A stretch of DNA of 64,000 nucleotides, from the IMG/VR virus record IMGVR_UViG_2695420859_000012, one strand, 5' to 3'. The stretch comes from a virus. Taxonomy: Duplodnaviria; Heunggongvirae; Uroviricota; Caudoviricetes. The position numbers and the translations under genes were made by a program. A model generated the notes under the pieces. The model did not search any database, was not told the origin of the DNA, and worked only from the letters and a program-made list of their open reading frames with translations. Every line of letters starts with the position of its first letter. Within the stretch, counting starts at the first letter, position 1. Shown piece by piece: positions 8,957 through 62,992 of this stretch.

Positions 8957-11320
8957 TCAAATATCGAAGCTCGTTATGTCGGCATTTATTGCCATTGCTT
9001 CGGCATAAGTGCGACGCTCACCATCAGCACAAAGTAGGCGTGCTGCTTTATGGATTTTTCTCGTAGAACCATCATCCAGTGACACTGTCACCCAGCCTTC
9101 CTCCGCTCGCTTAATGAAGTCGCCGCCAATGGATTTCATTTTCTCCATATCTTTTTTCCCGATCGCTTTCCTGACCGAGTCTGCTTCCGCCATTGAGAAC
9201 CCCGCCAAGATTCGCGTAGCAGCCATGATCTGTTCCTGATAAATCAGAACTCCGTTTGTGTCGCGAGAGATGTCGTCCAGCATTGGGTGTAAGGAATGTG
9301 GGGCCATGAAGCCTTTGGCCACGGACACATAATCGTCCAACATGCCGGATTGAATCGGGCCAGGTCGGAAGAGCGCAGTTGTAGCGACGACCGTTTTAAA
9401 GCTCATTGGCTCAATTCCACCACCTAAATCTTTAAGCAGCTTGCGCATTGGGCCTGATTCAAGCTGGAATACGCCCTGTGTATACCCTGCAGCAAAACCA
9501 TCCAGCACCTTGCGATCTTCAAGAGAAATGGCATCAAGATTGATATCTTCACCTGTGTTCTCTTTTATGTAGCGTTTTGCACTATCGAGCAAATCGAGAG
9601 TTGCCAGGCCAAGCACGTCCAGCTTAATTAGGCCCATAGCCTCGCAGTAACGCTTGTCAAATGCGATACAACGCGCGTCACCACGGCGTTCAACCGGTGT
9701 ACGTTCTGTCAGAGGAACACCTGCTACGATCATCCCTGCCGCATGTCTACCAAAGCCACGCATAAGGCTTTGTAACTTGCAGGCTGCATTGAATGCATCA
9801 GGATATTTTGTTGCGTATTTGTCGAGACTTGCCAGTTGTTCGCGCAGCTCTTCCAATGGAAGGCTATCATCCTCGACGTTCTTCAGTTCTTTTGATACCG
9901 CCATATCTGCGGACTCCACACCATAAATACGAGCGGTGTCACGTAGTGCAGAGGCTGCGCCCAGGTAGGTGAAGTTCGGAATGCCTGCAACGTAATCTTC
10001 GCCGTAGCGTTCATTCAGATACTCGATCACCTCATGGCGACGTGCCTGGCTGAAGTCCAAGTCCGCATCCGGCAAGTCGAGACGCTCAGGGTTGATGAAA
10101 CGCTCAAACAGAAGACCGTGACGGATTGGGTCGACGTTGGTTATGCCTATGCACCACGCCACCAGAGAACCGGCAGAGGAACCACGACCAGGCCCGACAG
10201 GAATGCCAGTTTCACGGCTGTGATTCATCAGATCGCGTACCATCAGGAAGTAACCACAAAATCCCAGGCGAGTAAGCGTGTCCATTTCGTACTTAAGTCG
10301 CTCAACATAAACCCTGTTCTCAGAAGCAGGTGGTGTGTATCCAAACTCTTTTGTGGTAAGACGTTTACGCAGCCCTGCAACAGCCAGTTTCATCAGCGTT
10401 GCAGGTTCGTCGTCTGCCATCTTGGGCAGTGCTGGTGGCAATTCATGCCAGCGCCATGTGCAGGCATCGATAATGGAGTCCTGCGTTGTTGAGGCCATTG
10501 CAGCTGTTACCGGCACATCCATGCGAACGGAGAAGGCTTTAAGCGCCTCAAGGAGATGGCGACGACCATTGATGGCGTTATCTCGCTGGTGGGGGATACG
10601 CAGACGATGCGGCTGGTCGATTTTTATGTTGTTCGTAACCATGTGCGCAATGTCTTTAATGTCTGCATCGTCGATCGATTCGTAATAAGCGGGATAGAAC
10701 GCTACTGGCTCTATTTTCAGTGCGCTGGCGACTTTCATCGCCCGGACGTTAATCTGGTCGTAGAATGGGGTAGGGTGCGGATAAACCACACTATAGAAGT
10801 TGTCTTTTCCACCCGCTGTAATCAGTGTGCTTATGATTTTTGCAAAATCGTTGCGTTGGAACACGCTACCGATGTCGGAAGTAAGCAGGATGATGTTGCC
10901 TTTGGCATATGTAGAAACCAACTGTTCGAGCGAGAGACGCGGTACAAAGTAGAACTGTTCTCGTGTGTTGGCCGCCGTCATTAGTTCGCAGATGTCGCGA
11001 TATCCTTTCTCATTTTTAATTAGAGCGGTAAACGAGTAGTTACGTCCTCGCTCTAATGATTCCATACATCTCATAGATTCTTTAGCAAGTTTAGCCCGGT
11101 GCTCGTATGTGGGATCATCAACAATGTTTAGTTTCACACCACAAATAACCGCCATGTCGTCACCAGCGGCACGTTGTAGTGGAATAACGCTCGCAATATT
11201 CATGCTATCTGCTGAAATTACAGCGGTGTAGCCAGCTTCTCTGGCAATCTTCACCGCGTTTTCTGCTTTTAGAGCCGACTCCCCAAGTGAGAAGTCAGTT
11301 CGAACCATCAGTGCCTTCAT
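8957..11320 (-). CDS. dnaE: DNA polymerase III alpha (DnaE-type), N-terminal part
   Basis: GYFLMVRDLMNHSRETGIPVGPGRGSSAGSLVAWCIGITNVDPIRHGLLFERFINPERLDLPDADLDF matches the DnaE catalytic core as recalled; ORF stops 44 codons after the point where similarity to uninterrupted DnaE ends. Confidence 0.85.
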   Translation of the reverse strand: MKALMVRTDFSLGESALKAENAVKIAREAGYTAVISADSMNIASVIPLQRAAGDDMAVICGVKLNIVDDPTYEHRAKLAKESMRCMESLERGRNYSFTALIKNEKGYRDICELMTAANTREQFYFVPRLSLEQLVSTYAKGNIILLTSDIGSVFQRNDFAKIISTLITAGGKDNFYSVVYPHPTPFYDQINVRAMKVASALKIEPVAFYPAYYESIDDADIKDIAHMVTNNIKIDQPHRLRIPHQRDNAINGRRHLLEALKAFSVRMDVPVTAAMASTTQDSIIDACTWRWHELPPALPKMADDEPATLMKLAVAGLRKRLTTKEFGYTPPASENRVYVERLKYEMDTLTRLGFCGYFLMVRDLMNHSRETGIPVGPGRGSSAGSLVAWCIGITNVDPIRHGLLFERFINPERLDLPDADLDFSQARRHEVIEYLNERYGEDYVAGIPNFTYLGAASALRDTARIYGVESADMAVSKELKNVEDDSLPLEELREQLASLDKYATKYPDAFNAACKLQSLMRGFGRHAAGMIVAGVPLTERTPVERRGDARCIAFDKRYCEAMGLIKLDVLGLATLDLLDSAKRYIKENTGEDINLDAISLEDRKVLDGFAAGYTQGVFQLESGPMRKLLKDLGGGIEPMSFKTVVATTALFRPGPIQSGMLDDYVSVAKGFMAPHSLHPMLDDISRDTNGVLIYQEQIMAATRILAGFSMAEADSVRKAIGKKDMEKMKSIGGDFIKRAEEGWVTVSLDDGSTRKIHKAARLLCADGERRTYAEAMAINADITSFDI

Positions 11321-15038: not shown

Positions 15039-15251
15039 TTAACAGATTCTGACGGCTAAAGACCCGGAGCCGATATTGAGAAGCGTGAAGCGTTTGTTGT
15101 TAAGTTCGAATATAAAGCCAGTTGTGTCATTCACACCAACCTGAATCTGCTCATTCGGTAGATCGGTGAGGATGTCAGCTACACACTCATCAGCTAATTT
15201 CTGTACGTGTCCGATCTCAAGAGCGATTAGGCTGGAAATAGTGGTGTTCAT
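15039..15251 (-). CDS. Hypothetical protein
   Basis: 70-aa ORF; preceded by hairpin ctgcgcgaat...attcgcgcag at about 14984-15026. Confidence 0.3.
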   Translation of the reverse strand: MNTTISSLIALEIGHVQKLADECVADILTDLPNEQIQVGVNDTTGFIFELNNKRFTLLNIGSGSLAVRIC

Positions 15252-15457
15252 TCAATCAATCCATTCTAACTTATACTATGGTAAGGAATACTACTAAAAT
15301 TTATATCAATACTGAATACATTCATATCATATGCAAGTTAATTTTCTTACCTGTTTTGGGCTAATTTTTCTCCGTGCAATGGCCTTTAACCGGTCTTTTA
15401 AGTGCCTATCGAAAAAAATGATAATAGCTTTACAACCCTAACCTTTGATGTAATATC

Positions 15458-15471
15458 GGTAAGCACTTACC
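15458..15471. promoter_or_regulatory. Dyad GGTAAG-CA-CTTACC upstream of the XRE regulator gene
   Basis: 14-bp palindrome about 30 bp upstream of the ATG at 15503. Confidence 0.4.
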
Positions 15472-15502
15472 AGAGAGAATTGAACGCGCAAAGGTTGTAA
15501 CA

Positions 15503-15889
15503 ATGTCTGACAACAAGATTGAATTTATAGAAAGTCGCTATGCTGCTTTTATCGCAGGGCTGATTGAATCCTCACCTATGAGTCAGGCCCAAATAGCCAG
15601 ACTTATTGGTTATAAAAATGCCAACAACCTTTCTTTAATTAAAAGTGGCAAAATTCCTTTGCCTATCGATAAGGTTCGTCCGTTGGCGCTGGCGCTGGGT
15701 ATTGAGCCAAGTCGTCTTATGATGATGGTGCTGGAAGAACGCCAACCTGAACTCGCAGCATTTTTATACAAAGAAGGCACCGCTCCTCTTAACGAGGACG
15801 AAAAACAGGTTCTTGCTGCATATAACGAGCGATTCGGTAAAGAGAAAGGCGCATCACAAAAGGTTGTTGAGGCCATAAAGTCTCTATGA
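15503..15889 (+). CDS. HTH transcriptional regulator (XRE-like)
   Basis: HTH-like segment MSQAQIARLIGYKNANNLSLIKSGK; plus strand, 3' end overlaps recombinase 3' end. Confidence 0.6.
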   Translation: MSDNKIEFIESRYAAFIAGLIESSPMSQAQIARLIGYKNANNLSLIKSGKIPLPIDKVRPLALALGIEPSRLMMMVLEERQPELAAFLYKEGTAPLNEDEKQVLAAYNERFGKEKGASQKVVEAIKSL

Positions 15890-17976: not shown

Positions 17977-18005
17977 AAAGGCCTATATGGGCCTTTTCAT
18001 TTTTA
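17976..18005. terminator. Intrinsic terminator hairpin between convergent genes
   Basis: aaaaggcc-tatatg-ggcctttt followed by cattttta. Confidence 0.6.
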
Positions 18006-18248
18006 TAGTGTACTCACCAGCGCCGCAAATTCCGTATACCCCCCAATATGCTCTCCATGTATGAATATCTGAGGTATGGTATCCACTGGTTTACCAACCT
18101 GGTTGCTCAACGTTTCTTTGTTGATCCCCGCAGATGTAATATCTATATACTCATAATCACCGTAGCCATGTCCCTTTAGTTGCTTCGCCAACTCGACCGC
18201 ACGTTTGCAGTATGAGCAGTTATCTCGTCCGTAGATAGTGATCGTCAT
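18003..18248 (-). CDS. Glutaredoxin (NrdH-like redoxin)
   Basis: 81 aa with CSYC active site (MTITIYGRDNCSYCKRAVELA). Confidence 0.8.
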   Translation of the reverse strand: MTITIYGRDNCSYCKRAVELAKQLKGHGYGDYEYIDITSAGINKETLSNQVGKPVDTIPQIFIHGEHIGGYTEFAALVSTL

Positions 18249-18421
18249 AACTTAACAAATACCTTTATAAATATTGATTCGAACATATCAGACTATACTA
18301 CAAACAGATTTTTTTGATAAGTATGTAGTAACTTATTGATTGACTAGTAAACAATTGAAGTGATTACGACAATAGATTACAGTAAGGATTGCCTTGAAAT
18401 GTACATTTTATAGAGGTTTTA

Positions 18422-19507: not shown

Positions 19508-19594
19508 CTGGCGGAGAGTAATGGAATCGAACCATCATCGCTTGCGCAATGGGACGGTTTTCAAGACCGCTTGAGCACCATGCTCCCTACTCTC
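19508..19594 (-). tRNA. tRNA-Ser (anticodon UGA), type II, CCA encoded
   Basis: Own cloverleaf: acceptor GGAGAGU/ACUCUCC, anticodon loop CUUGAAA, long variable arm, T-loop GGTTCGATTCC. Confidence 0.7.
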
Positions 19595-19694
19595 CAGCTA
19601 TTGTGATGGTCGGTGCTGAACTCCGACACAGGGTTGTAGCAAGCCCCGCAAAGCGCGCACTACTGTAGTTGCGGCACATCAGCCTGTGCATTCA

Positions 19695-19773
19695 TCACAA
19701 CGGTAAGATCACTACCTTTCGACCAGTCATTGTGCACATGAACGACGATTAACCGTAATGATCTTATCGTTGT
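19695..19773. repeat. Stem-loop of the CACAACGGTAAGA family
   Basis: cacaacggtaagatcac pairs with atgatcttatcgttgtg. Confidence 0.55.
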
Positions 19774-19824
19774 GTTGTGAAGCCAGATGCTTATCTTCTG
19801 GTTGCTTCAAAGAGCTGCACTTCC

Positions 19825-19913
19825 TCACAACGGTAAGAGCACTGGTCTGACTCTATCGATTTACGGCCTTGTGGGTCAGTATCGCCGATTCGCCCAATGC
19901 TCTTACCTGTTGT
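19825..19913. repeat. Stem-loop of the CACAACGGTAAGA family abutting tRNA-Thr 3' end
   Basis: cacaacggtaagagca pairs with tgctcttacctgttgtg. Confidence 0.55.
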
Positions 19914-19914
19914 G

Positions 19915-19990
19915 TTGGTGCCGGTTAACGGACTTGAACCGCTGGCCATTCGCTTACAAAGCGACTGCTCTACCAACTGAGCTAAACCGG
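19915..19990 (-). tRNA. tRNA-Thr (anticodon UGU), CCA encoded
   Basis: Own cloverleaf: acceptor GCCGGUU/AACCGGC, anticodon loop UUUGUAA, T-loop GGTTCAAGTCC; 76 nt. Confidence 0.65.
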
Positions 19991-19994
19991 CAAT

Positions 19995-20081
19995 TTGGTG
20001 GGGAGTGATGGAGTCGAACCACCCGAGTCGCCATGACAGTAGATTTACAGTCTACACCGCTACCTCTACGGACTAACTCCC
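19995..20081 (-). tRNA. tRNA-Tyr (anticodon GUA), type II, CCA encoded
   Basis: Acceptor GGGGAGU/ACUCCCC, anticodon stem GUAGA/UCUAC with loop CUGUAAA, long variable arm. Confidence 0.7.
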
Positions 20082-20086
20082 CTAAA

Positions 20087-20161
20087 TTGGCGATGGTGGG
20101 TGGATTCGAACCACCGACCAGTTGGTTAACAGCCAACTGCTCTACCGCTGAGCTACACCAT
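20087..20161 (-). tRNA. tRNA-Asn (anticodon GUU), CCA encoded
   Basis: Acceptor GAUGGUG/CACCAUC, anticodon stem GUUGG/CCAAC with loop CUGUUAA, T-loop GGTTCGAATCC. Confidence 0.75.
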
Positions 20162-20430
20162 CAATTCAGCACTGCCAGTATTTATTACTCAACAGTGCCA
20201 ATCGCGACGGTTTAGTTTCTGCCAGGAAACGCACCGCTACTTGCACTTTTCGTTAGTGCCAGACGCTTTCGACTTCGCTCAATAGTAGAAGGCAAAATCT
20301 TTAAGTAGATGATGTTTCTGAGGACAGCACCTACTTTGTAATTTATACAATGTGATGTATGGAATCATTTGTTGTGAAAACAGGCACCAATGGCAACAGT
20401 GGTTAAACCTACACAACAATCCCGTCTTCA

Positions 20431-21751: not shown

Positions 21752-23074
21752 TCATTCTTTATCTCCGATTCGATCTTCTGTATCGCGTAAGCAACGCGGC
21801 CATTTCAGTCGTGGGTGGCGTAAGCTGCCATCAGGTGTTTTCTCGTGACAATGAACCTCGACAATACGACCACGGTACTTCTCTTTGTTGTTCCAGATCT
21901 CGTCCAGATATTTATGCTTAATGCCGCTCGCACGAACGATGACGCCGTTTTCAAGACGAATAACAATTTTTCCAAGCGTGTTGGCAAAACCAGAGTCCGG
22001 GTCGCCCGGCTCAAAATCGATAATTTCACCATCTTCTGAATCTTCGTCTTTTAACTTCCACCAGCTGCGGGTACGTTTAAATTCGTAAACAGAGTTCGGA
22101 TCTTTGCCCATCTCCCCTTCTTCGTTATCGTCCAGGCGTTTCATGAAGCGTTCGATGAAGTCTTCGTGGCTATGGATGATGTAGAACGGATGCAGGTGAA
22201 TGTCTTGTGCGTAGCCTTCACTGCGATCGTTTTTGAACAACGCCACGAGCATAGCCAGGCGCTCTTTCAGCTTCATACCTGTCTTTGCATACTCTTTGGA
22301 TTTAGCCTGTGCTCGCCATTCCGGTAGGAAGAAGTCGAAAACATGATAAATAGCGCCAATTGCCTGCACGTTCTTTTTGCGCAATGCAGATACGGACTGG
22401 TTAAATGAACCGGCTGTGCCTTCACCATCGAAGAAGATGTGTTTGTGGCCTGAAAGTTTGCCTAATTCGAGCATGGCTGGCTTTAGGTGATCGAGAGACG
22501 TGATTGGATTACCAGTACGAGAAAGGAAGTTAACCTCTTCTTCGTCAACAATAACCTCGCAAATTACTCGCAAACCATCGAGCTTAAGGCTGCCAATCAT
22601 CGGCCATTTTGCTTTAGGGTTTGGCTTGAAGGGGTATTTGTCGCCTTTTTCTTTATACGGTGACGCCAGCTGCACCTCGAATTTCGGAATGGGATTTTCA
22701 AAAACCTTGTTACATAGGCTAATCCCAACGCCAGCTTTCGGATCTTTTAAGAGGAAACGACGGAAGACGTCCTGCCCATCGGCGCACATTGACGCCACGA
22801 TAGACTCAACAGCAACTATTGCTGCGTTCCCCGTCAGCTCGCGAGAGGCCAGCTTATTCAGTATATCAATGGCTTTTTCGTCACTTGGGACGGACTCACT
22901 AAGCGGCTCTGCCACTTTGTATTTTTTTACCCCAAAACGGATGAAAGGGTTGAGCATCAATGAAACCATGCTTTGCTCGAAGTCATCCATGTTGGCCAAT
23001 GCCTCTTTTTTTGCATTGGTTCCCATAGCTTTCATTTCGTCCAGCTTATGCTTAAGTGCGATCAACTTTTTCAT
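21752..23074 (-). CDS. ATP-dependent DNA ligase
   Basis: Adenylation motif KLDGLR; downstream FFDGEG and WWKLK motifs. Confidence 0.85.
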   Translation of the reverse strand: MKKLIALKHKLDEMKAMGTNAKKEALANMDDFEQSMVSLMLNPFIRFGVKKYKVAEPLSESVPSDEKAIDILNKLASRELTGNAAIVAVESIVASMCADGQDVFRRFLLKDPKAGVGISLCNKVFENPIPKFEVQLASPYKEKGDKYPFKPNPKAKWPMIGSLKLDGLRVICEVIVDEEEVNFLSRTGNPITSLDHLKPAMLELGKLSGHKHIFFDGEGTAGSFNQSVSALRKKNVQAIGAIYHVFDFFLPEWRAQAKSKEYAKTGMKLKERLAMLVALFKNDRSEGYAQDIHLHPFYIIHSHEDFIERFMKRLDDNEEGEMGKDPNSVYEFKRTRSWWKLKDEDSEDGEIIDFEPGDPDSGFANTLGKIVIRLENGVIVRASGIKHKYLDEIWNNKEKYRGRIVEVHCHEKTPDGSLRHPRLKWPRCLRDTEDRIGDKE

Positions 23075-23541
23075 TGTTGTTTTACCTCCATATGTTGATC
23101 GATTTGCTCATGTGTTTCTTTTGTTGTTTCTTCAAGCAACGCCGCATACACGTCAGTGATCGCTGTTTGTGATGTGGTGCTCTTCTTAACCATGCTATTA
23201 ATCGTTACACTGTCACGTTTTCGTTTTATAGTTCTGGCTTGTTTATTCCGTTCTTCAACCTCCTTAATGAGCGCGGTCATATCTTCGAAATACAGAGATT
23301 CTCCTTTACGAATCTCTTCAACCATCATTTTTAACGCCTTGCATTTGCCTGCTTTAATAGCGGTTGCGCACGACTGGAAAGAAGTTCGAGGAAGACGGTT
23401 TTCTTTGAAGGCAAGAATGGTGTGCTGGCAAACGGAATAGCTGCAATATGTCGACTCACCGTTTATCTTTACTTCCTCACAACGAAGTGAATAACCGTTA
23501 TTTCCTGAAATAGAAGGGATTTTTGACAAATCAGCTTTCAC
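23071..23541 (-). CDS. Hypothetical Cys-containing protein
   Basis: 156 aa, apparent GTG start, weak RBS. Confidence 0.35.
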   Translation of the reverse strand: MKADLSKIPSISGNNGYSLRCEEVKINGESTYCSYSVCQHTILAFKENRLPRTSFQSCATAIKAGKCKALKMMVEEIRKGESLYFEDMTALIKEVEERNKQARTIKRKRDSVTINSMVKKSTTSQTAITDVYAALLEETTKETHEQIDQHMEVKQQ

Positions 23542-23607
23542 AATTACCGCCAGAAATAATCTTGTGCTTACCTATCATTATTTGCGTAAAAACGACACAC
23601 AGAGAGC

Positions 23608-24384
23608 TTACCAACTTCCCCAGCTAATCATCTTGCGCTGATCGCTTTCTAAGCGATAAGGGGCAAGAAGCTCTGTGACATGATTGGTGGCGTATGATTT
23701 AGCCTCTTGCTTAATCATCGGTAATTCGTTAGCAATCCTGACCATCTTCCCAGCAAATTCCGCCATTACGCCATCACAAGCCTTCCCCGCATCAACAACG
23801 ATATGCACAAGATCCAACTGGCTTTTGCACATATCCCAAAGAGACGCGTATTCACTCTCTCTGATTACATTTACGGCACTATTAGCCCCTTTATTAATCA
23901 AAACTTCCAACAGATTTTTCGGGGTAACGAAATCTGCTTTCAGAGATAATGTCTTTTCACCACTTATCGAACGCAAGTACTCTTCGTAGTTATTCTTCAT
24001 CAAACCGCTGCTGCGCATTGCTAGAACTGCTTCTTGAATGGCCGCTTCAATAGTTTCGTCGTTTGAAAGACAAAAAACGGTATTTGTGTAGATCACTCTG
24101 CCATCAAGCCATGCTCCAACCTGCACTTTAAGACTGAGCGGGTTTTCTTTGCTAATAAAAACAACTAATGCAGAACGCCGTGCACAAGAAGGTTCGCCCC
24201 ATACGTGTAACTCAACCTTCAGATAAGGCAACCCTGGTAGCGGGATCTCGTCCATACGAGCAGCGATATGATTCATTGCTGTATTGACGGCCTTTCCAAT
24301 GATGTCTAGTCGACTGCCCTCGCTGATTTCTAAACCTGTTTTATCAATGATGTCACAGGCCAATTTCTGAATTTCGTCTTTCAT
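23608..24384 (-). CDS. Hypothetical protein
   Basis: 258 aa; TAAGTA-N6-TACTTA dyad about 43 bp upstream. Confidence 0.4.
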   Translation of the reverse strand: MKDEIQKLACDIIDKTGLEISEGSRLDIIGKAVNTAMNHIAARMDEIPLPGLPYLKVELHVWGEPSCARRSALVVFISKENPLSLKVQVGAWLDGRVIYTNTVFCLSNDETIEAAIQEAVLAMRSSGLMKNNYEEYLRSISGEKTLSLKADFVTPKNLLEVLINKGANSAVNVIRESEYASLWDMCKSQLDLVHIVVDAGKACDGVMAEFAGKMVRIANELPMIKQEAKSYATNHVTELLAPYRLESDQRKMISWGSW

Positions 24385-24923: not shown

Positions 24924-25156
24924 GTTGGCTTCCCTTTATTTATATTTATCGCAGGTATTAGTTAATCAAAACACGAGCAGTGCCACAATAATTAAATGGC
25001 GTACTATTTCTTATGGTTATTAGTTTCCTAGTAACTTTACCGACCATAAACTAAATCAACAAAGCTGACATATTAACTAAATTTAAGTACCATTTTTCGC
25101 ACACTTGACACTTGCCGCGTCTAAACTGTTCATCCTATATCAACAGAACAAAAAAT

Positions 25157-26302
25157 ATGAAATACATAAAATCTTCATCGTTGCTGGCATTAACTTTGCT
25201 TTTTAGCTCTGGATTCGTTAACGCAGACAATAAACAAACGCTGATAGAAGCCGCTACCGCAGGGGATACCGCAGCACAAAGTGAGTTAGGGACAAATTAT
25301 TTTGATGGTATCAATGGTTTTGATAAGGATGTAGTTGAGGCCAAGAAGTGGATTGATCTCGCTGCAGAAAAGGGAGACAAAGTAGCATATTATGCACTTG
25401 GGGTTATGTACACATTTGGCGAGGGTGTAGATAAAGACTTAAATAAAGCAGTTGAGTACTACAAACTTGCGGGAGATGCTCGTGAAGGTAGAGCCTATAA
25501 CAATCTTGGTGCTATTTATCAAAAGGGGATGCTTGGTAAAGTAGATCATGCGCTCGCCATTAAATACTTCAAACTAGCCTCTGATGCCGGGTATGTTAAA
25601 GCTAGCTACCTTCTTGGTGCGTATTACCAATATGGTAAAGGTGTACAAAAGAGTTATAAAAAAGCTTTTACTTATTACAAAAAAGCGGCGGATCAAGGTA
25701 GTTCAGATGGCATGTTCGCATTAGGCACCTTATACGATGACGGTTTAGGTGTTAAACGCAACGATGCCGAAGCAATTAAGTGGTATAAAAAAGCTGCTGA
25801 ACTCGGAAACGCCGATGCCATGACAAATCTTGGCATTATGTATGAGTATGGTGAAGGGGTTAAAAAAGACTATAAAAAAGCAGCTGAGCTTTATCAGGCT
25901 GCTTGTGATAAAGAAGATAAAAATGGCTGTGATTACATTGCAGAACTGAAAGAAAGCGGCAAATATCGAGCGCCGGCTTCCAAAGCCAAAACAAAATCCG
26001 CCACCCAGCGACTTATTGCTAAATCCATTGATAAGGGCGTTAACGCTACATTTACCTGGCAGGGTGATGATGCTACCTTCACCGCTAATGATGGCAAAGT
26101 TGACTGCACCTTCCTGAAGGATTTTTCAGAGAAAGGAGGCAATCTGGCTACCTCGTTTGTTTGCACCGATAACGTTCAAATCATACTGAAGCAATTCAGA
26201 GATACCAAGAATGCCTACCTCGCGGTAATGACTGACAACTTCAACACAGAAGTTAAATCATTTTCGGTCAATGTGTACGTGACTAATACTGGTTCAAACT
26301 AA
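25157..26302 (+). CDS. Secreted Sel1-like repeat protein with unknown C-terminal domain
   Basis: Start re-called at ATG 25157 (MKYIKSSSLLALTLLFSSGFVNA); tandem Sel1-type repeats (KWYKKAAELGNADAMTNLGIMYEYGEGV...); about 115-aa non-repeat C-terminus. Confidence 0.7.
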   Translation: MKYIKSSSLLALTLLFSSGFVNADNKQTLIEAATAGDTAAQSELGTNYFDGINGFDKDVVEAKKWIDLAAEKGDKVAYYALGVMYTFGEGVDKDLNKAVEYYKLAGDAREGRAYNNLGAIYQKGMLGKVDHALAIKYFKLASDAGYVKASYLLGAYYQYGKGVQKSYKKAFTYYKKAADQGSSDGMFALGTLYDDGLGVKRNDAEAIKWYKKAAELGNADAMTNLGIMYEYGEGVKKDYKKAAELYQAACDKEDKNGCDYIAELKESGKYRAPASKAKTKSATQRLIAKSIDKGVNATFTWQGDDATFTANDGKVDCTFLKDFSEKGGNLATSFVCTDNVQIILKQFRDTKNAYLAVMTDNFNTEVKSFSVNVYVTNTGSN

Positions 26303-29681: not shown

Positions 29682-29797
29682 GTGGCTCACCTGGTAGGTA
29701 GTTACTTACTTATCACAATGAGCGGATGATAGCGACTGGTGGCAGTTTTTGGAAGTGGAAACGGAAGGGAGTTGTTCTGGTGGTGTCTTTTAAAAGA

Positions 29798-29852
29798 CCT
29801 GCTTCCGTATATATTTAATAAGTTACTTATTATTTATATATACAGAAGCAGG
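29798..29852. repeat. 55-bp palindromic element, copy 1
   Basis: cctgcttccgtatatatttaataagttacttattatttatatatacagaagcagg; identical to 62647-62701. Confidence 0.9.
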
Positions 29853-29963
29853 CATAACTTGTCGTCTTAGACGCCCAGAAGCTCTACACTTTGAGCCTGT
29901 TAAATTGATTAAAAACTTATGTGTAAAATAGAACGCATTAGTCAGTAGCAAAGAGATGCAATA

Positions 29964-30731
29964 ATGGACGATTTATCGGTATACGCGAGATCATTGGATA
30001 AGGCTAAATACTATGTTTACTGTCTCTATGATACAGAAGACAAGATGAAAAGACCGTTTTACATAGGAAAAGGCAAATCGACTCGTTGTCTCGATCACAT
30101 CAAGTATCCCGATGACTCTCCCAAATCCATGCGGATCAAAGAACTTTTGGCTAATAAAAAATTAGGCATAGATATACTTCGTCATGGTATGGATGAAACC
30201 ACAGCCAAACTTGTTGAGGCGACATGCATCGACCTTATGGGGGTCGGAGAGCTTACGAATAAGGTACGAGGAAGTGGTTCCATGATGGGCAGAATATCAC
30301 TGGACGCCTACCATCACTTAGTGCTGCAAGAGGAAACTGAAATTGCTCCTGAGCACGCCGGTCTTGCCTTCCTGCTAAACAGCACCTACAAGTCAGGAAT
30401 GTCCGCTCTGGCATTATATGAGGCTACGCGTGGCGTATGGGCAAAGGTTCCAAGAGACGAGAATCTCAAATATGCCTACGCTACATATGGTGGGCTGATA
30501 ATGGAAGTTTATCAGATTGAATGCTGGGTCAAAGCCGGTTCTCAGCAGTACTTTACAAGGGATATAGCTCTTGGCCCCGACACAAAACGTTATGAATTTG
30601 TTGGCAGAATAGCCGATGAGCATATTAGAAAACTGTATGTAGGCAAATTAATCAAGAAGCCACCAAGCTACGGTAGCCCTTTTGTGAAGGTTGGGGTGGT
30701 TAGGACTGAACATAGTGTTAGCGCGGCATAA
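29964..30731 (+). CDS. GIY-YIG nuclease-domain protein (possible free-standing homing endonuclease or cargo nuclease)
   Basis: N-terminal YYVYCLYD...PFYIGKGKSTR; about 150-aa unknown C-terminal region. Confidence 0.6.
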   Translation: MDDLSVYARSLDKAKYYVYCLYDTEDKMKRPFYIGKGKSTRCLDHIKYPDDSPKSMRIKELLANKKLGIDILRHGMDETTAKLVEATCIDLMGVGELTNKVRGSGSMMGRISLDAYHHLVLQEETEIAPEHAGLAFLLNSTYKSGMSALALYEATRGVWAKVPRDENLKYAYATYGGLIMEVYQIECWVKAGSQQYFTRDIALGPDTKRYEFVGRIADEHIRKLYVGKLIKKPPSYGSPFVKVGVVRTEHSVSAA

Positions 30732-40166: not shown

Positions 40167-40258
40167 GTTGAATATGCTCCTTGATTTGGTGGGCTATCCT
40201 TGCCCACCATTAAGTATGTACCTACTTATTTTTACCGATATAAATATTTTTTTCTACA

Positions 40259-47067: not shown

Positions 47068-47149
47068 TGTTTCATCCTTGAAATAAGTAGGCGCTAACAT
47101 CCTGTCAGCGCCACAATGATAGTAAATTAGTACTTACTTATCCAGATAC

Positions 47150-50500: not shown

Positions 50501-52120
50501 GCCAACTACCCCCATGATCCCTGCTCGCATCAGTTTGAACGCAACCATCGCGGCCACGACCTTACCGAGATTAATTACCAGCTCTTGGTTCTTTGCTAAC
50601 CATTGAGCAAGCTGACGCAACCCATCAATTGCCGTCGTTAACCCCGAGCCTAAAGAATTGGCAAACGAAATCCCTTCGGCGCTATTCATGATTGAAGCCA
50701 GTTCTTTCATCCCCTTCGATAGAGAATCCAGATATCCGGCCTGACCAACCCGATCAGCAAATAACGTGAATGACGTCTGAAGTTGCGCCAGCGCACCTGT
50801 GTAGGTTTGCATCATGTCTTTCGCTGCGTTCTCATTCTCCGCACGCAGACCAACAAACATCAGAGACAACGCCTGTTTTGCCTCAACCGTACCGCTGGCA
50901 ACGGCTTTAGTCAGTTCCCCCATAGTGATGCCTGCGGCGTCTGCCATTGCCTGCATCGCGTTAGGAACGGCTTCACCTAATTGCTGACGTAGCTCTTCCA
51001 TTGACACAACGCCCTTACCGGACATCTGCTGAACGGCCACAGCCGCACGTTTCAACAGCTCACTATCACCACCAAAACGAGCAACGGAGTCCACCAGCGC
51101 CTTCAGAGAACCATCGGTTGGATCTAAGCCAGCAGAACGAAACTTCACGAAGGAATCTGTTAACGCCTGCATCGCGAACGGCGCATTTTGCGCCATGTCT
51201 ACGATGTACTTCATATCATCAGCGGCAGCCTGGCCAGGGTTGGACTTCTCCTTATTCAACCCTCGAAGCATCACCCGCATACGTTCCATTTCGGCCGCAG
51301 CTTCAACAATAGGCTTCTGCCACCCAAACATGATGTCAGTAACCGTTCTGGCTGCATCTCCGATCTCGCCAAGCAGGAAAATGTTGCCACGAAGGCCAGA
51401 GAACATACCTCCTTCGTTACTTTTACCGCTATGGCCAGAAGCGCCGCTACGCCGCCCGCTACCACCATCGCCACTTCCAGATGTACGAACGCGTACCGGC
51501 TTGCTAATCAGTTGCTGACGTCCGATAACTTCGTCCATCTGCTCACGAACCTTTTTCAGTCCCTCGGCAGCCTGACTCGTTGTGACACCCCAATTACTGA
51601 GTCGCTTCGTCGTGGTATTAAGGCGCGTATTCATGCCACTCACGGACGCAGAGGCTTCTTTGACCTCCGTACCAAAGCGGCTTGCGCTTTTGCTTGCATA
51701 GGTCGCCCAATCAGAGAAATCATTTAGCTCTGATTGCACTTTACGTAATGACGCGGTGAGTTTATCTACTGAAGAAGTTGTCGTATCGACGCGCTCAATC
51801 AGGGCTTTAAGACCAGAATTGAGGCTGGTGATGTTGCCACGCATTTTACGCGTAGCATCTGAAGCAAGCTCAAAACCGGCAGCTACATCCTGTAGTTTAT
51901 CTGCTGTAGAATCGAGCTTGCTTTCCAGAACGCCAATGATACGGGCGACCGAACCCAAAGAGCGTTCAAAGGTTTGGATTTTTTGAGCAGGCTTTGTTAC
52001 CTGCTCACCAAATCGAGTAAGCAGTTTCCCCGCACGATCGATTGACGCTGTAAACTGTTTGTCTTCCAGCGACAGGATAAACTCTACGTTTTGTGACATT
52101 CCCTTGTCATCCTCTGCCAA
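47528..52120 (-). CDS. Tail tape measure protein
   Basis: 1530 aa, Ala/Gln-rich coiled-coil; follows G/GT chaperone genes. Confidence 0.85.
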   Translation of the reverse strand: MAEDDKGMSQNVEFILSLEDKQFTASIDRAGKLLTRFGEQVTKPAQKIQTFERSLGSVARIIGVLESKLDSTADKLQDVAAGFELASDATRKMRGNITSLNSGLKALIERVDTTTSSVDKLTASLRKVQSELNDFSDWATYASKSASRFGTEVKEASASVSGMNTRLNTTTKRLSNWGVTTSQAAEGLKKVREQMDEVIGRQQLISKPVRVRTSGSGDGGSGRRSGASGHSGKSNEGGMFSGLRGNIFLLGEIGDAARTVTDIMFGWQKPIVEAAAEMERMRVMLRGLNKEKSNPGQAAADDMKYIVDMAQNAPFAMQALTDSFVKFRSAGLDPTDGSLKALVDSVARFGGDSELLKRAAVAVQQMSGKGVVSMEELRQQLGEAVPNAMQAMADAAGITMGELTKAVASGTVEAKQALSLMFVGLRAENENAAKDMMQTYTGALAQLQTSFTLFADRVGQAGYLDSLSKGMKELASIMNSAEGISFANSLGSGLTTAIDGLRQLAQWLAKNQELVINLGKVVAAMVAFKLMRAGIMGVVGAGSQMVSTFATMATAIQTPFNLGATAVTRFNRAARMGLAPIPSLIFAIRGAITGLKGAFAGLTAFIAANPIGAAFTVATVAVAGLITYMTMLRSETSKVVDEIRKIPEAMTAAKRAQMADRAEKLEKQILADQRALKTGEGVNYVSNSAGVITHKESKADIEARLKKNQEEYQKITGTIALGDGAVAKRLAKEAAESQIEKIRAENQIFAATFVKARQEALDKIQKINDDGSLSDDEKNKLLAPLRETVNKSYLEPAQKLVDSLSSRKNATEKQIATLNDQLEKAKKDGNTEQIQKLQGSIRGYQEHLEAVAQELTQAEFERDNAAKTGKGVMSNQGTVLGLGTTDKAAQKALAQYMRNQMDSATYQRTLPDGTPMMDFEGKPIIGPKQLKTQLNLQKASSASSLEKMSDEERAAAIAALTKAREQDAAAAEKAAQRSANASQRAAKKEQAAQQKLAAGYQKALDKADQLMGQMGESSKATVSFDQSLRDTTKSLTDLANAVPNEFITQEMIDKAKKRLEDLKNATPEYREMFNRRNVEQMISTWAPEADSIISAGYTPSREEKVADFEDTYNRNLKALIELRDKASDPKVVALYTKKINQLIAAGNTALIKETGTATQKLALEYENLAEQIESTWTDLFSGLTDVLTDFVINGKMSFSSLSQSILKDITNMVVKSQITLPLMNMLGMGTTAAGSSQSGNLLTGVASAVANQGVRMGNTVNGDKSVGEATKETSSSVTGLGQTTQQTTSAIGTATNAIGSWVSGLFDSTEAKDAETKAVKDSIFSMQNLSSVTGALSAAFAMLGANASGSGNKWLNFGATVASGLVSVWAGGGFDGLMSGSSGSTSGFNNLTSSAADGTNGIPAIPKFANGGIFGKDGVIPLRAYQKGGIANSPQLALFGEGDMNEAYVPLPDGRTIPVTLSTDGMSGGGNVLSPVSIEINVHSDGSTTESGDTESIWNNAAQRMKAIALETIAQEKRPGGSLNPNTQRN

Positions 52121-53576: not shown

Positions 53577-53650
53577 TGATGGAAAACTCCTTTTTCCGTT
53601 AATTCTACGCATTCATTGCGCTAATAGTAAGTATATACTTACCGATTAAC

Positions 53651-57170: not shown

Positions 57171-57200
57171 AAAAGGGTGGGCGTATAGCCCACCCTTTAA
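57171..57200. terminator. Hairpin agggtgggc-gtata-gcccaccct downstream of capsid gene
   Basis: 9-bp GC-rich stem with T-run on minus-strand transcript (CCCACCCTTTTTG). Confidence 0.6.
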
Positions 57201-57229
57201 CATAGATAACTACTTATCTACTACACTGA

Positions 57230-59018: not shown

Positions 59019-59039
59019 AAAAATTCCCTTTGTTACTTA

Positions 59040-60614
59040 TCACTCGTTCTCTTGAGTAGATGAGTCCCCATTCCCTCGGGGTTGATCTTGCCCGCTTTCT
59101 TGGGCTGCACCACGATCATAAGTAAGTACTGACTTATTTTCAAGGGTATTTAGATCATTTTTTGGCGGAAAATTCAAGAGATCTTTATCAAATTCCTTTT
59201 TCATCGCCTCAGTAATGTTCGGGAAAATCTTCTCAATAAGCATTTCCATCTGGTGACGACGTACAGAGTCCGGTGCCTGAAGTAATGACAGTTTCTCGGC
59301 AACAGAAAATTCATCTGTAAGGCCACGAATATCGAAACTTTCTGGATACGCAATTAAAGAGTGGTCTTCGTCCAGATCTACCCCCATCCATTTCGCAACC
59401 AGTAGCATGATTTGGCGTTCAGCCCTTTCCAGACGCTCTGCTTTTGTGACAAGCAAGCTATTTACACGCTGGAAGTCATACATTTTTGCGGCACCAGATG
59501 AGTTATCAATTCCCTGTGCGTTGTCCTGCTTCGTTCGCTCACCAGCGACACCAACTGAATGGTAGATTTCGTTAATCACCGTCTTAATCGTAGTGATGAT
59601 CATCTGAGCTTGTTTCGGGTCTGGTGACAAATAAAACGGCTGGTTTCCACCTTCAGAATCGTAGGTGAAGACTCGCTTTGTGCCCATTTCAAGCACTTTA
59701 GTGTGGTTTTCATCACCAGGTAAAAGCGACTGTACCGGTATAGCCAACTGGCTAAATGTCTGATCCTGAATAATGGCATCAAGGTTTGACAGATAGTTTG
59801 CAACCGCACGATCAAGATAAGCGATATCATCGATCAACGATGGGCTGAAATACGGTGATTCACTTTCTCCAATACAATCAACAGGAAACACAGGAACTAC
59901 GCTGAGATTATGCTCACCGCTATCCTCTAAAATAACTTTTGCCTGACGGCGACCTGCTCCACCAGCGCCCTTCTTCACTTCCTCACGGAACAGATACCAC
60001 TCGTTTTGTGTCCACAGACGATAACGTTGGTATTCCTGACCTGTAGAAGTAAAAGGATCTGCATCATCACGAGCGACTTCCACAATTAACGCCCACAACA
60101 TATTCCCGTCGTCGTCCCATGCCACATCCAGCATTTGCTGAGGTGAAATCCAGTAGGCGTAGGCGCGAGCATCTTTCTTTTTCTCGTCAGCTACTGACTC
60201 AACATCACCACTCATCGTGCTATCGACAACAACCCATATGCGACCGTAAATAGACGACTGCAAATCAATAGCGGCCATAAATGAGTCAATAGAGGCATTC
60301 TGGCGAGTCGCACGTTTCCAGAAATTGCGGATCTGCTCTGGTGCCTCTTCGATATTTCTATGAATGTCTTCTTTAAAGAGATATTTGTTGATGAGGTTTA
60401 CCACCTCACGAGTGTGGTTGAAGCGATAAGCACGCTCAACTCGCTCCTTAAACTCCTGATCTCCCTCTTTAAAGTAACGAAAGATATTGTCTGTAAACCA
60501 ACCACGCCCGCCAGCGTAAGTGCTGGCGAGGAAGTCCCAATGTTCTTTTTTCTTTTCGTATTCCGGGTGGCGTCGCGCCACCAGATCCTTAATTTGTTTG
60601 TCGTTCAATTCCAT
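59040..60614 (-). CDS. Portal protein
   Basis: 524 aa directly downstream of large terminase. Confidence 0.7.
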   Translation of the reverse strand: MELNDKQIKDLVARRHPEYEKKKEHWDFLASTYAGGRGWFTDNIFRYFKEGDQEFKERVERAYRFNHTREVVNLINKYLFKEDIHRNIEEAPEQIRNFWKRATRQNASIDSFMAAIDLQSSIYGRIWVVVDSTMSGDVESVADEKKKDARAYAYWISPQQMLDVAWDDDGNMLWALIVEVARDDADPFTSTGQEYQRYRLWTQNEWYLFREEVKKGAGGAGRRQAKVILEDSGEHNLSVVPVFPVDCIGESESPYFSPSLIDDIAYLDRAVANYLSNLDAIIQDQTFSQLAIPVQSLLPGDENHTKVLEMGTKRVFTYDSEGGNQPFYLSPDPKQAQMIITTIKTVINEIYHSVGVAGERTKQDNAQGIDNSSGAAKMYDFQRVNSLLVTKAERLERAERQIMLLVAKWMGVDLDEDHSLIAYPESFDIRGLTDEFSVAEKLSLLQAPDSVRRHQMEMLIEKIFPNITEAMKKEFDKDLLNFPPKNDLNTLENKSVLTYDRGAAQESGQDQPRGNGDSSTQENE

Positions 60615-60640
60615 TTGAATAACCTTAGATAATTACCTAC

Positions 60641-61897
60641 CTATCGAGAACCACCAAGAATAACACGGTTTTTGACTGGATACCTACGATGTACTGGATA
60701 GCCCAATGCGTCTGCACTATGCTCAATGCCACCTGTCTTATCCATATCTCGTGTTCCAGGCTTGTAGATGACTTTTTCCAGTGAATCAATCAAATGCTTG
60801 CACTTCGGATCGATATACAACCGGATATCTCCAGATGCGGTCATCAGCATTCGGTTAACAGCATTAACACGATCCGCAATTGGCGGGTGCTTTTTCGAAT
60901 AATCGACACGTAAGAATCCCTTCTCTTTGAATATGTCGACGTCAGACTCCCCGCGAGCATGTTGGCGATAAGCACCTGCCGGATCTGGAAATACCGTTAT
61001 CTGTGATTTCCAGCGCCAGAAGCGTCTCTCAAGCTCATCACAAACCTCTGCCGTGTTAGAGGAAAAGAGCACCAATTCATCAATTGCCCATAGCTCACCA
61101 TTTGGCTGAGGTTGCAAAATTACTGAAGACATCGGGTCAATGTTGAAGTCCTGCCCTACCCATATAGGCAACCGAGGGTTGAACTGAAGCGGTTTTACAT
61201 GCACGTTACGATCGAACGGGTAGTAAACGCGCCCGGACATGTTCTCAAAGCTCGCCAGGTACTCCTGAGCGAACGATTTCGGGTCCATATCGTTCTTAGC
61301 AGCTTCAATTTCCGCCGTAGGCACAAACGGAGAATCGGCAGTTACAAACTGCCAGCTCTTCCACTGTCCCTTTCTTTGCAGCTCTACGTTCTGGCCTATA
61401 GTCCACAGTTTGTGAAATTCCGAGAAACCTTTTGGCGTACCAATGATAAGTGCACCGCCGCGTGTCGATGAAAGAGTAGGTCGTAACACCTTGTACCAGG
61501 TGTCAGCCTTCATATCCTGAAATTCATCAAGCACTACAAAATGCAACGCTACGCCGCGCAGAGTGTCAGGCTTATCAGCACCTTTGAGGGCGATCTCCGA
61601 ACCGTTCTTCAACACGATTGTCATCGTGGTGTCGTTCTTTTTCCTAACCCACTTACGAGGCAGAACTTCCTGTAGATCGTCCCACAAAATCTGGCGAGCC
61701 ATCTGGTAAGTAGGAGCGACATACCAGACCCTTTGCTTTTTTTCCTTTGCCGCCGCACGAATAATAGTGGAGATCGACAACCGGGATTTTCCCCAGCGTC
61801 GACCAGCACAAACAACTTTAAATCGATGCGGAGACTGGAAGACTTTCATCTGTCCAGAATGCAGTTGCACAAGACTGAGCGAGGACGGGATTGCCAT
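60641..61897 (-). CDS. Terminase large subunit
   Basis: Walker A VVCAGRRWGKS, Walker B VVLDEF; nuclease-region acidic residues. Confidence 0.8.
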   Translation of the reverse strand: MAIPSSLSLVQLHSGQMKVFQSPHRFKVVCAGRRWGKSRLSISTIIRAAAKEKKQRVWYVAPTYQMARQILWDDLQEVLPRKWVRKKNDTTMTIVLKNGSEIALKGADKPDTLRGVALHFVVLDEFQDMKADTWYKVLRPTLSSTRGGALIIGTPKGFSEFHKLWTIGQNVELQRKGQWKSWQFVTADSPFVPTAEIEAAKNDMDPKSFAQEYLASFENMSGRVYYPFDRNVHVKPLQFNPRLPIWVGQDFNIDPMSSVILQPQPNGELWAIDELVLFSSNTAEVCDELERRFWRWKSQITVFPDPAGAYRQHARGESDVDIFKEKGFLRVDYSKKHPPIADRVNAVNRMLMTASGDIRLYIDPKCKHLIDSLEKVIYKPGTRDMDKTGGIEHSADALGYPVHRRYPVKNRVILGGSR

Positions 61898-62529: not shown

Positions 62530-62646
62530 AGATCCCTCTAAAACACACAGAGCGCGTCCATGCGCTCTAAAACAACTTGTTTACTGCATTTTCTAACCAA
62601 CTTGTTTTCTGGGTTGTTTAATTAGGTCTGGGCATGTCTTATTAAG

Positions 62647-62701
62647 CCTGCTTCCGTATATATTTAATAAGTTACTTATTATTTATATATACAGAAGCAG
62701 G
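62647..62701. repeat. 55-bp palindromic element, copy 2
   Basis: Identical to 29798-29852; between terS start and the 88-aa gene. Confidence 0.9.
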
Positions 62702-62725
62702 TCTTTAAATAAGCTCCCAGACCGA

Positions 62726-62992
62726 TTACATCACCAGTAACTTCGCTTTGGCTCGACCTAAAGTGGTTAACCCAAGAGTTCGGCGGTGATAGCGATTGTC
62801 ACTGCGTTGGCGCGTATGCCCTTTCTCCACAAGCCCCTTTTTTATCAGAGCGCGAATTGAGAACTGGATACTTTGCTTGGTTGTCTTGTACGGCAAAACT
62901 TCAAGCAATTCGTCCAGATCAAGTAGATAACCTCGCTCATAACCGAGATTGAGCGTTTTGATGATGTCCTTTTGTTTATCGGTTAACGTCAT
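62726..62992 (-). CDS. Small basic protein, possible DNA-binding regulator
   Basis: 88 aa, Lys/Arg-rich C-terminus. Confidence 0.4.
   Translation of the reverse strand: MTLTDKQKDIIKTLNLGYERGYLLDLDELLEVLPYKTTKQSIQFSIRALIKKGLVEKGHTRQRSDNRYHRRTLGLTTLGRAKAKLLVM

Follow-up and report, generated by a model that had tools for sequence, protein, structure and literature searches.

A dispersed 22-bp palindrome in an SSU5-like phage-plasmid as the probable operator of a phage-encoded repressor

A repeated sequence, GATAAGTAAGTA/TACTTACTTATC, was analyzed in a 64,000-nucleotide (nt) stretch of tailed-phage DNA (IMG/VR record IMGVR_UViG_2695420859_000012; the whole stretch is called the window), with the copy at 53626-53643, upstream of the major tail gene, as the focal site. 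The repeat is a genuine and conserved protein-binding site, a palindrome of 22 bp located on or beside the promoters of most lytic operons. On balance, it is probably the operator of one small phage-encoded repressor that keeps the lytic operons silent in the plasmid state. This reading is the best supported of those considered and is more likely than the two functions suggested in the initial annotation, which were an element-specific promoter consensus and an activator site.

Judged from its sequence, the window belongs to an SSU5-like phage-plasmid. Escherichia phage Cyrano (pLF82, OV696614), a 108-kb phage-plasmid of the SSU5 type, matches it collinearly in reverse orientation at 96-98% identity. 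Nearly all window genes lie on the minus strand. The annotated genomes of Cyrano and SSU5 (81% nucleotide identity) and 80 IMG/VR loci anchored on the terminase large subunit (TerL) served as comparators. Per-gene RNA-seq data for the Cyrano lysogen were taken from S1 Table of the LF82 paper (PMC9928086). In the searchable literature we found no description of the motif, also by string searches for it, and none of the control of lysis versus plasmid maintenance in SSU5-type elements.

The motif and its distribution

Alignment of the sites gave a dyad of 20-22 bp, (G)ATARGTA-AGTACT-TACYTAT(C), with an invariant TA step every 4 bp. The focal sequence read as originally reported, and a perfect 16-bp palindrome, GTAAGTATATACTTAC, occupies 53627-53642; the upstream gene stops 3 nt before it, and the ATG of the major tail gene (53576) follows after 49 nt. 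Matrix scans, shuffles, 8-mer counts, and conservation agreed that the family is real. Allowing up to two mismatches, GATARGTARGTA matched the window 32 times, compared with 9.9 ± 3.4 matches in shuffled sequences (about 3-fold enrichment), and five 12-mers were exact. A 22-bp matrix trained on nine Cyrano sites only, all of them outside the region equivalent to the window, detected 16 window loci at a cut-off of at least 14 bits (0.3 expected). Thirteen of these were located in non-coding DNA, which makes up 11% of the window (34-fold density excess, binomial p = 2 × 10−10). An equal density inside coding regions, the possibility raised against the motif at the outset, was thus not observed. 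In a de novo 8-mer count over the whole of Cyrano, ATAAGTAA was the top intergenic word (13 intergenic versus 2 coding copies), and GATAAGTA occurred eight times in intergenic and never in coding DNA. The heptamer ATARGTA was present in 44 copies, 36 of which fell into the 13% of Cyrano that is non-coding. Cyrano carries about 25 strong sites, and we estimate 25-30 per whole SSU5-type genome.

Eleven of the 12 examples given in the initial annotation belong to the family; the other, 59025-59038, is a half site beside a Shine-Dalgarno sequence. Family sites at 1632, 15454, 18316, 23555, and 59117 (the last one inside the portal gene) were absent from that list. The motif does stand upstream of many genes, as had been stated, but its unit is ATARGTA-N6-TACYTAT (20-22 bp) and its distances to the ATG range from 9 to 83 nt. 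An AAAGGG(A/T) element, described as following several copies, did not hold up as a separate feature: it is a Shine-Dalgarno sequence where it lies 13-16 nt before the ATG, and at 57198 it forms the 5′ arm of a terminator. Outside the palindrome, nothing was conserved at a fixed offset except for an AT-rich block at −17 to −11 (11-17 nt upstream).

Overlap with predicted promoters

The motif is specific to the element and tied to promoters, as had been supposed. The two best coding-strand matches to a sigma70-type promoter in the window overlap motif sites:

59117-59138, dyad in the 3′ end of the portal gene, 22.4 bits; it fills the spacer of TTGAAA-17-TATGAT (59143-59115)
53626-53647, focal dyad at the tail-completion/major tail junction, minus-strand reading AATCGGTAAGTATATACTTACT, 18.5 bits; it overlaps the spacer and −10 of TTGAAT-18-TATACT (53659-53630)

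The match at 59143-59115 ranks first in the window, with 10 of 12 consensus positions, and is the putative promoter of the scaffold/major-capsid operon; that at 53659-53630 ranks second. When the 108-kb Cyrano genome was matched to the sigma70 consensus, the first two hits, and 8 of the first 13, overlapped motif sites.

The position of the motif relative to the promoter elements is variable. In Cyrano, the predicted −10 starts at motif position 19, 19, 22, 13, 8, −2, 32, or 43. Some sites lie on a stop codon, on a ribosome-binding site (60624), or against an ATG, and in a distant clade the major-tail site lies around the Shine-Dalgarno sequence and the ATG. A fixed −10 (TAYNAT) at the right edge of the motif was considered and rejected: its mirror image is equally frequent on the other strand. 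Such variation in register is what one expects of a repressor operator, but not of an activator site.

Conservation of the site as DNA

SSU5 has about 24 strong sites at orthologous positions, and some 50 distinct relatives keep the focal site. Relatives down to 81% TerL, 60% major-tail, and 45% ParB-like protein identity retain ATARGTA/TACYTAT half sites at the same junctions, with central bases and flanks changing around them. At the portal-gene site (59117), the DNA is kept although the encoded peptide differs (ENKSVLTYD versus ESKYLNTYD), so the constraint there acts on DNA.

An RNA hairpin would predict an excess of G·U over A·C pairs on the coding strand. The counts were 33 versus 25 in Cyrano and 22 versus 27 in SSU5, and this lack of asymmetry argues for a DNA-level dyad and a protein-binding site. 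Moreover, the R/Y positions 5 and 18 vary independently in Cyrano, and no site had an Rfam match. It is therefore highly improbable that the motif acts in mRNA, as a hairpin serving as processing site, terminator, or translational operator (for instance for the FljA-like protein of Cyrano). Such a role would agree with the transcription of many sites, with the major-tail site of the distant clade, where the Shine-Dalgarno sequence falls into the "loop" and the ATG into the "stem", and with the presence in Cyrano of the FljA-like homologue of an RNA-binding repressor. Against it, G·U pairs are not in excess and A·C mismatches are not depleted, the stems are AT-rich and lack a U tract, one site precedes tRNA genes, and no FljA-like gene was found in the 10 kb examined of the distant clade. 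Despite the arrangement seen in that clade, a hairpin or translational operator was rejected on the pair statistics.

The 5′ untranslated region of the major tail gene (about 53581-53622), beside the focal site, contains two hairpins with compensatory changes in relatives, and these covarying hairpins differ in look from the motif. The stem of the first is GCGCA/TGCGT, GTGTC/GACAC, or GCCGCA/TGCGGC. The second, which holds the Shine-Dalgarno sequence in its loop, is GGAAAA-AGGAG-TTTTCC, with GGTAAA/TTTACC or GCAAA/TTTGC as alternative stems.

Orthologous sites may also differ by whole 4-bp units, as in N2 versus N6 after the capsid gene. In the dyad upstream of the ParB-like operon (orthologue of the Cyrano site at 105106, outside the window), the number of units ranges from (AGTA)2 to (AGTA)5 in the close relatives L050, L053, L057, and L063. 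From the sequences, this looks like slipped-strand variation within a regulatory site. Possibly, the 4-bp variation reflects overlapping half sites offset by 4 bp, or a protein that reads arrays.

Expression of motif-linked genes in the Cyrano lysogen

During growth in lysogeny broth (LB), motif-linked genes were at background. CYRAN_56 and CYRAN_60 had zero reads despite TTGAAA-17-TATCAT and TTTACA-17-TAGTAT, respectively. After 6 hr in macrophages, when the SOS-type genes of the element were upregulated, transcript levels stepped up exactly at five motif sites:

recA-like gene to membrane-protein gene junction, +3.6 log2
CYRAN_59 to CYRAN_60 junction, +3.65 log2
tail-completion to major tail junction (focal site), +2.5 log2
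CYRAN_39 to CYRAN_41 junction, +1.9 log2
portal to scaffold junction, +1.2 log2 (+2.8 to the major capsid gene)

The size of the step tended to track the quality of the sigma70 promoter (rho = +0.40, p = 0.07), and a stronger motif tended to go with less induction (rho = −0.41, p = 0.056). Downstream of genes expressed in the lysogen, transcript levels fell by 2.4-6 log2 over motif-bearing junctions. For two such junctions, with drops of 2.4-2.5 log2, terminator prediction found no coding-strand terminator; one of them, with a drop of 2.5 log2, is orthologous to the site at 23555. The junction orthologous to the site at 29693 showed a fall of 6 log2. Taken together, silence in the lysogen, step-ups, and drops point to repression in the plasmid state and its relief on induction. 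That promoters close to consensus are silent in the lysogen indicates that repression is needed, rather than that an activator is missing.

A candidate repressor and its own operator

The most likely binder is encoded in the window on the plus strand, with a copy of the motif core in front of its gene:

15503-15889, plus strand, Xre-type helix-turn-helix (HTH) protein of 128 aa, homologue of Cyrano CYRAN_45 ("putative repressor"), candidate binder with an HTH_19 match below the Pfam cut-off
15458-15471, perfect copy of the motif core, GGTAAGCACTTACC, directly after the −10 TGTAATAT of the predicted repressor-gene promoter

CYRAN_45 is expressed in the lysogen (96 normalised counts versus a background of about 10). 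Homologues with 57-100% identity are encoded in 9 of 12 SSU5-like phage records and 71 IMG/VR loci, including Salmonella-type elements near SSU5. The absence of the Xre-type protein from SSU5 is outweighed by this distribution and by the core on its promoter. The sequence GGTAAGCACTTACC, 31 nt upstream of the gene, is the only perfect match to the motif core RGTAAGYRCTTACY in the window. The arrangement TTTACA-N16-TGTAATAT-C-GGTAAGYACTTACC is shared by three clades (E. coli, Salmonella-type, and Klebsiella) with repressors of 57-70% identity, while the flanks diverge. A palindrome over the predicted start site would correspond to the classical autoregulatory layout, and we propose 15458-15471 as an autoregulatory operator.

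Divergent from the repressor gene is a minus-strand gene of 70 codons (15039-15251). Its Cyrano orthologue, CYRAN_46, was among the most strongly induced genes after 6 hr in macrophages (+6.4 log2), and its product may be a cro-like or antirepressor-like early protein. A weaker motif-like sequence, GGTAAGGAATACTA, is located near the start of this gene, which 15252-15502 separates from the repressor gene.

In the mechanism that we propose, the motif would be bound by a probably dimeric phage repressor, most likely the Xre-type protein of 15503-15889. Most copies would sit over the −35 to +1 core of sigma70-type promoters, each at the head of a lytic transcription unit; among them, these units serve replication, nucleotide metabolism, head and tail formation, and lysis. 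As long as the element is a plasmid prophage, all sites would be occupied by the repressor and the promoters thereby kept off. On induction, the sites would be vacated, and host RNA polymerase would fire each promoter according to the quality of its own −35 and −10. At the minority of sites on stop codons, on ribosome-binding sites, or upstream of terminators, the bound protein may instead act as a roadblock to read-through.

Several points weigh against a repressor operator. Most sites lack a good −35 in register, as is the case for activator-dependent promoters. In the putative operator of the repressor gene itself, the match is limited to the inner 14 bp; the outer GATA/TATC arms are missing, and the score with the 22-bp matrix is only about 10 bits. 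This inner core is in turn not conserved in the most distant clade (81% TerL identity, for example IMGVR_UViG_2751185775_000001), where it reads GGTAWGT·RAATACC. One rigid dimer is hard to square with spacing classes 4 bp apart (N2, N6, and (AGTA)2-5). SSU5 has no Xre gene, yet it keeps strong sites; here we assume that SSU5, isolated as a plaque former, is a repressor-less derivative that lost its integrase-repressor module. Furthermore, the RNA-seq data have gene resolution and stem from a relative that is 96-98% identical, the correlations are marginally significant, and promoter registers were predicted by matching to the sigma70 consensus rather than taken from mapped transcription starts.

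A stronger version, in which a single Xre repressor governs the whole lytic programme through 25-30 operators, some of them stoperator-like roadblocks, and slippage of RGTA units tunes or phase-varies operator strength, is put forward tentatively and is rather doubtful as a whole. If true, it would place a stoperator-like system outside the actinobacteriophages. Phage-plasmids of the SSU5/pHCM2 type occur widely in E. coli, Salmonella, and Klebsiella, and resistance genes are found on some of them. An operator shared by nearly all lytic operons would offer a handle on the master regulator, on the prediction of transcription units, and on the construction of inducible or locked derivatives. With it, the design of many dispersed operators known from P1 and mycobacteriophage L5 would reach a third, unrelated group.

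Further sites and neighbouring features

The other sites in the window, together with one associated terminator, were the following:

60624-60645, dyad overlapping both the stop codon of terL and the ribosome-binding site of the portal gene, whose ATG is 9 nt away; SSU5 and more distant clades have orthologous sites
57201-57222, dyad of the short-spacer class, 7 nt past the major-capsid stop and 5 nt before a conserved terminator
about 57172-57196, this conserved terminator, GGGTGGGC-N5-GCCCACCC-T5, downstream of the major capsid gene
47121-47142, dyad at the junction of minor tail genes M and L, 22.5 bits, overlapping TGGATA-17-TATCAT (47144-47116) and followed by a hairpin (47112-47090)
40209-40230, dyad at the junction of the host-specificity (J) and tail-fibre genes, 21.1 bits
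34825-34846, dyad 61 nt upstream of the holin gene, 18.3 bits
29693-29714, dyad between the parA operon, which is expressed in the lysogen, and the helicase/primase operon, 11 nt upstream of the first gene of the latter, 23.6 bits
24425-24446, dyad 40 nt upstream of gene 23608-24384, 20.1 bits, followed by TGTAAGAAT (extended −10-like)
23555-23576, dyad upstream of gene 23071-23541, 15.7 bits
20910-20931, strongest site of the window, GATAAGTATTTACTTACCTATC, 26.9 bits, 9 nt past a stop codon and upstream of a tRNA cluster
18316-18337, dyad 67 nt upstream of the glutaredoxin-like gene 18003-18248, 21.2 bits
12794-12815, weaker dyad at the cobT-like/cobS-like junction, 13.1 bits
6416-6437, dyad at the junction of the uvsY-like gene and the gp32-like single-stranded DNA-binding protein gene, 24.5 bits
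1632-1653, dyad after the terminator of the recA-like gene, 31 nt before the membrane-protein gene, 17.5 bits, with TTGAAA in register as −35

In Cyrano, the orthologue of the site at 1632, TTGAAA-17-TATCAT, is the best promoter match of the genome. The tRNA cluster downstream of the strongest dyad (19509-20162, minus strand) comprises genes for tRNA-Asn, -Tyr, -Thr, and -Ser.

A large inverted repeat, CCTGCTTCTGTATATA...TATATACGGAAGCAGG, is present in two copies, at about 62646-62702 and 29797-29853; one copy lies 136 nt upstream of terS. Its loop holds AATAAGT-A-ACTTATT, i.e. motif half sites at 1-bp spacing, like the P1 late box AAGTNACTT. A similar element occurs in Cyrano at 78098.

The gene for the DNA polymerase III alpha subunit is divided into two open reading frames (ORFs), 8957-11320 and 7008-8177, with an HHH_6 domain in the latter. 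Between them lies a free-standing homing-endonuclease ORF (8174-8908, HNH_3 and NUMOD3) that Cyrano does not have. At breaks in the alignment with Cyrano, the window has two genes of its own on the opposite strand, 25112-26302 (plus) and 29964-30731 (plus), whose products are a Sel1-repeat protein and a GIY-YIG nuclease (LEM-3-like). Three features of Cyrano lie outside the window: (i) the FljA-like gene at 100780-101301 ("repressor of phase-1 flagellin", PF03614, E = 1 × 10−80); (ii) an Rfam match to the cspA thermoregulator at 50542-50960; and (iii) a locus of 44 codons at 78657-78791 with high expression in the lysogen, whose protein is 95% identical in SSU5 and which is possibly an RNA gene.

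Alternative explanations

A phage activator could replace the missing −35 at middle or late promoters, in the manner of the P1 Lpa box at about −22. The motif would then be an activator-dependent promoter element, which we regard as possible but not probable. A candidate for such an activator, or for a lytic-phase regulator, is encoded close to the terminase genes:

62726-62992, minus strand, MarR-like winged-helix protein of 88 aa, directly upstream of terS, alternative candidate binder

Its AlphaFold2 model has a predicted local distance difference test (pLDDT) value of 82, and Foldseek aligned it to MarR/MepR-type proteins with template modelling (TM) scores of 0.7-0.78. The position of its gene is that of P1 lpa and staphylococcal rinA, and its HTH region is, like the half sites, nearly invariant over all clades down to the most distant one. 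In the lysogen the gene is off (at background), and stress induces it, a pattern that would fit an activator or a regulator of the lytic phase. In favour of an activator, besides the scarcity of −35 elements noted above, 13 of 23 sites have TAnnnT at motif positions 19-24, the motif core AAGT·ACTT is similar to the P1 late box AAGTTACTT, and sites persist in SSU5, which has no Xre repressor. However, TAnnnT is mirrored equally on the other strand (11 of 23 and 16 of 24 sites), which marks it as an extension of the palindrome and not as a directional −10. Relative to the best −35/−10 pairs, the register varies by more than 10 bp, and sites on a ribosome-binding site or ATG leave no room for a leader. 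An activator is also at odds with the complete silence of near-consensus motif promoters in the lysogen and with the lower induction that tends to accompany stronger motif matches. In condition B6, the winged-helix gene was upregulated but the promoters P56, P60, and P12 were not. Homology to P1 Lpa was sought in Cyrano by BLASTP and TBLASTN and rejected (best E-value 0.17). The silent promoters, the weaker induction at strong motifs, the varying register, and the core at the repressor gene thus make an activator site less likely than a repressor operator.

It is very unlikely that the motif is itself the promoter, whether for host RNA polymerase or for a polymerase modified or encoded by the phage. 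Its intergenic location upstream of many genes and the transcript step-ups at several sites would fit. Yet the palindrome is symmetric without strand asymmetry, the distance to the start codon is not fixed (0-130 nt), and at several strong sites a step-up is absent or replaced by a drop. The idea of a promoter consensus, raised in the initial annotation, also does not agree with the varying −10 register, the lack of an in-register −35 at most sites, and the sites on stop codons, ribosome-binding sites, or ATGs. Neither RNA polymerase nor sigma factor is among the annotated proteins of Cyrano, and Pfam or PHROGs scans of about 35 Cyrano proteins, together with PDB sequence searches for three candidates, revealed no sigma factor, polymerase, or named activator.

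Unlikely as well, if less so, are centromere-like or silencing sites bound by a protein with a ParB N-domain (two are encoded upstream of the terminase genes; one of them would be a KorB-like global regulator acting at scattered sites) or by a ribbon-helix-helix (RHH) protein that reads RGTA arrays. A strong Cyrano site lies 16 nt upstream of the ParB-like operon and its (AGTA)n copy number varies among relatives; such variation in unit number is typical of repeat arrays read by RHH proteins (omega, ParG). The ParB-like genes are conserved in all clades, and an RHH-like protein family encoded downstream of uvsW, also in all clades, is expressed in the lysogen. On the other hand, the ParB-like genes are at background in the lysogen, and both the ParB-like and the RHH-like proteins are linked to the motif by proximity alone. 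Clades differ in the DNA-facing strand of the RHH-like protein but not in the half sites. The parA promoter region contains TAGGC boxes and no dyad. The ParG-like partner of ParA was rejected as binder on the same grounds, its own promoter region having TAGGC repeats without the dyad. HicB was rejected too: the alignment of the window with Cyrano breaks at Cyrano hicAB, and the window has other ORFs there. To our knowledge, the motif fits none of the sites of Fur, LexA, CRP, TrpR, or H-NS, nor the RcsB box. The half site fits the NarL heptamer, TACYYMT, but in the opposite arrangement.

Comparison with known systems

A repressor with dispersed operators has its closest parallel in C1 of phage P1. 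P1 is likewise a phage-plasmid with dozens of small transcription units, and a single repressor of the plasmid state acts on operators scattered genome-wide. According to the annotation of the P1 record, these operators overlap sigma70 −35 and −10 elements, including those of the repressor's own gene. In contrast, C1 operators are asymmetric and 17 bp long, while the motif described here is a dyad of 20-22 bp, and C1 (283 aa) is unrelated to the 128-aa Xre-type candidate. Moreover, the late structural genes of P1 are under the control of Lpa boxes, whereas here one motif precedes both replication and structural operons.

Cluster A mycobacteriophages carry 20-30 genome-wide repressor sites (stoperators, bound by gp71 in L5), many of them in short gaps between genes; part of these sites are genuine promoter operators, and others stop elongation (PMC6550527). 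The number of sites here (about 25-30), the location of several of them on stop codons or ribosome-binding sites, and the transcript drops across some are similar. Stoperators, however, are 13-14 bp long, have no dyad symmetry, are bound by a monomer, and are oriented with transcription. The motif here is palindromic, with only a weak asymmetry between mismatches in the left and right half sites (19 versus 29 and 14 versus 22); many of its copies lie on recognisable promoter sequences, and its function as a roadblock is proposed.

In P1, 11 late promoters have an Lpa box, a 9-bp inverted repeat at about −22, in addition to a −10 (PMC10695390). An inverted repeat between the −35 position and the −10 is also present at many predicted promoters here, and in both elements a small gene for a DNA-binding protein is located directly upstream of the terminase genes. 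Here, however, the dyad is longer, its register varies, no Lpa homologue was found, and sites occur at early-type genes as well. Two sites have a near-consensus −35, and promoters with a good −35 are silent in the lysogen.

Operators of the P22 Arc/Mnt type are palindromes of about 21 bp that take up the space between −35 and −10, as the dyad at 59117 does in TTGAAA-17-TATGAT. There, the immunity region holds one or two operators, in contrast to the genome-wide set seen here. A 22-bp dyad built from 4-bp units and the candidate protein set the present element apart from both the P1 C1 and the L5 systems, whereas its regulatory logic, by analogy, would be that of P1 C1.

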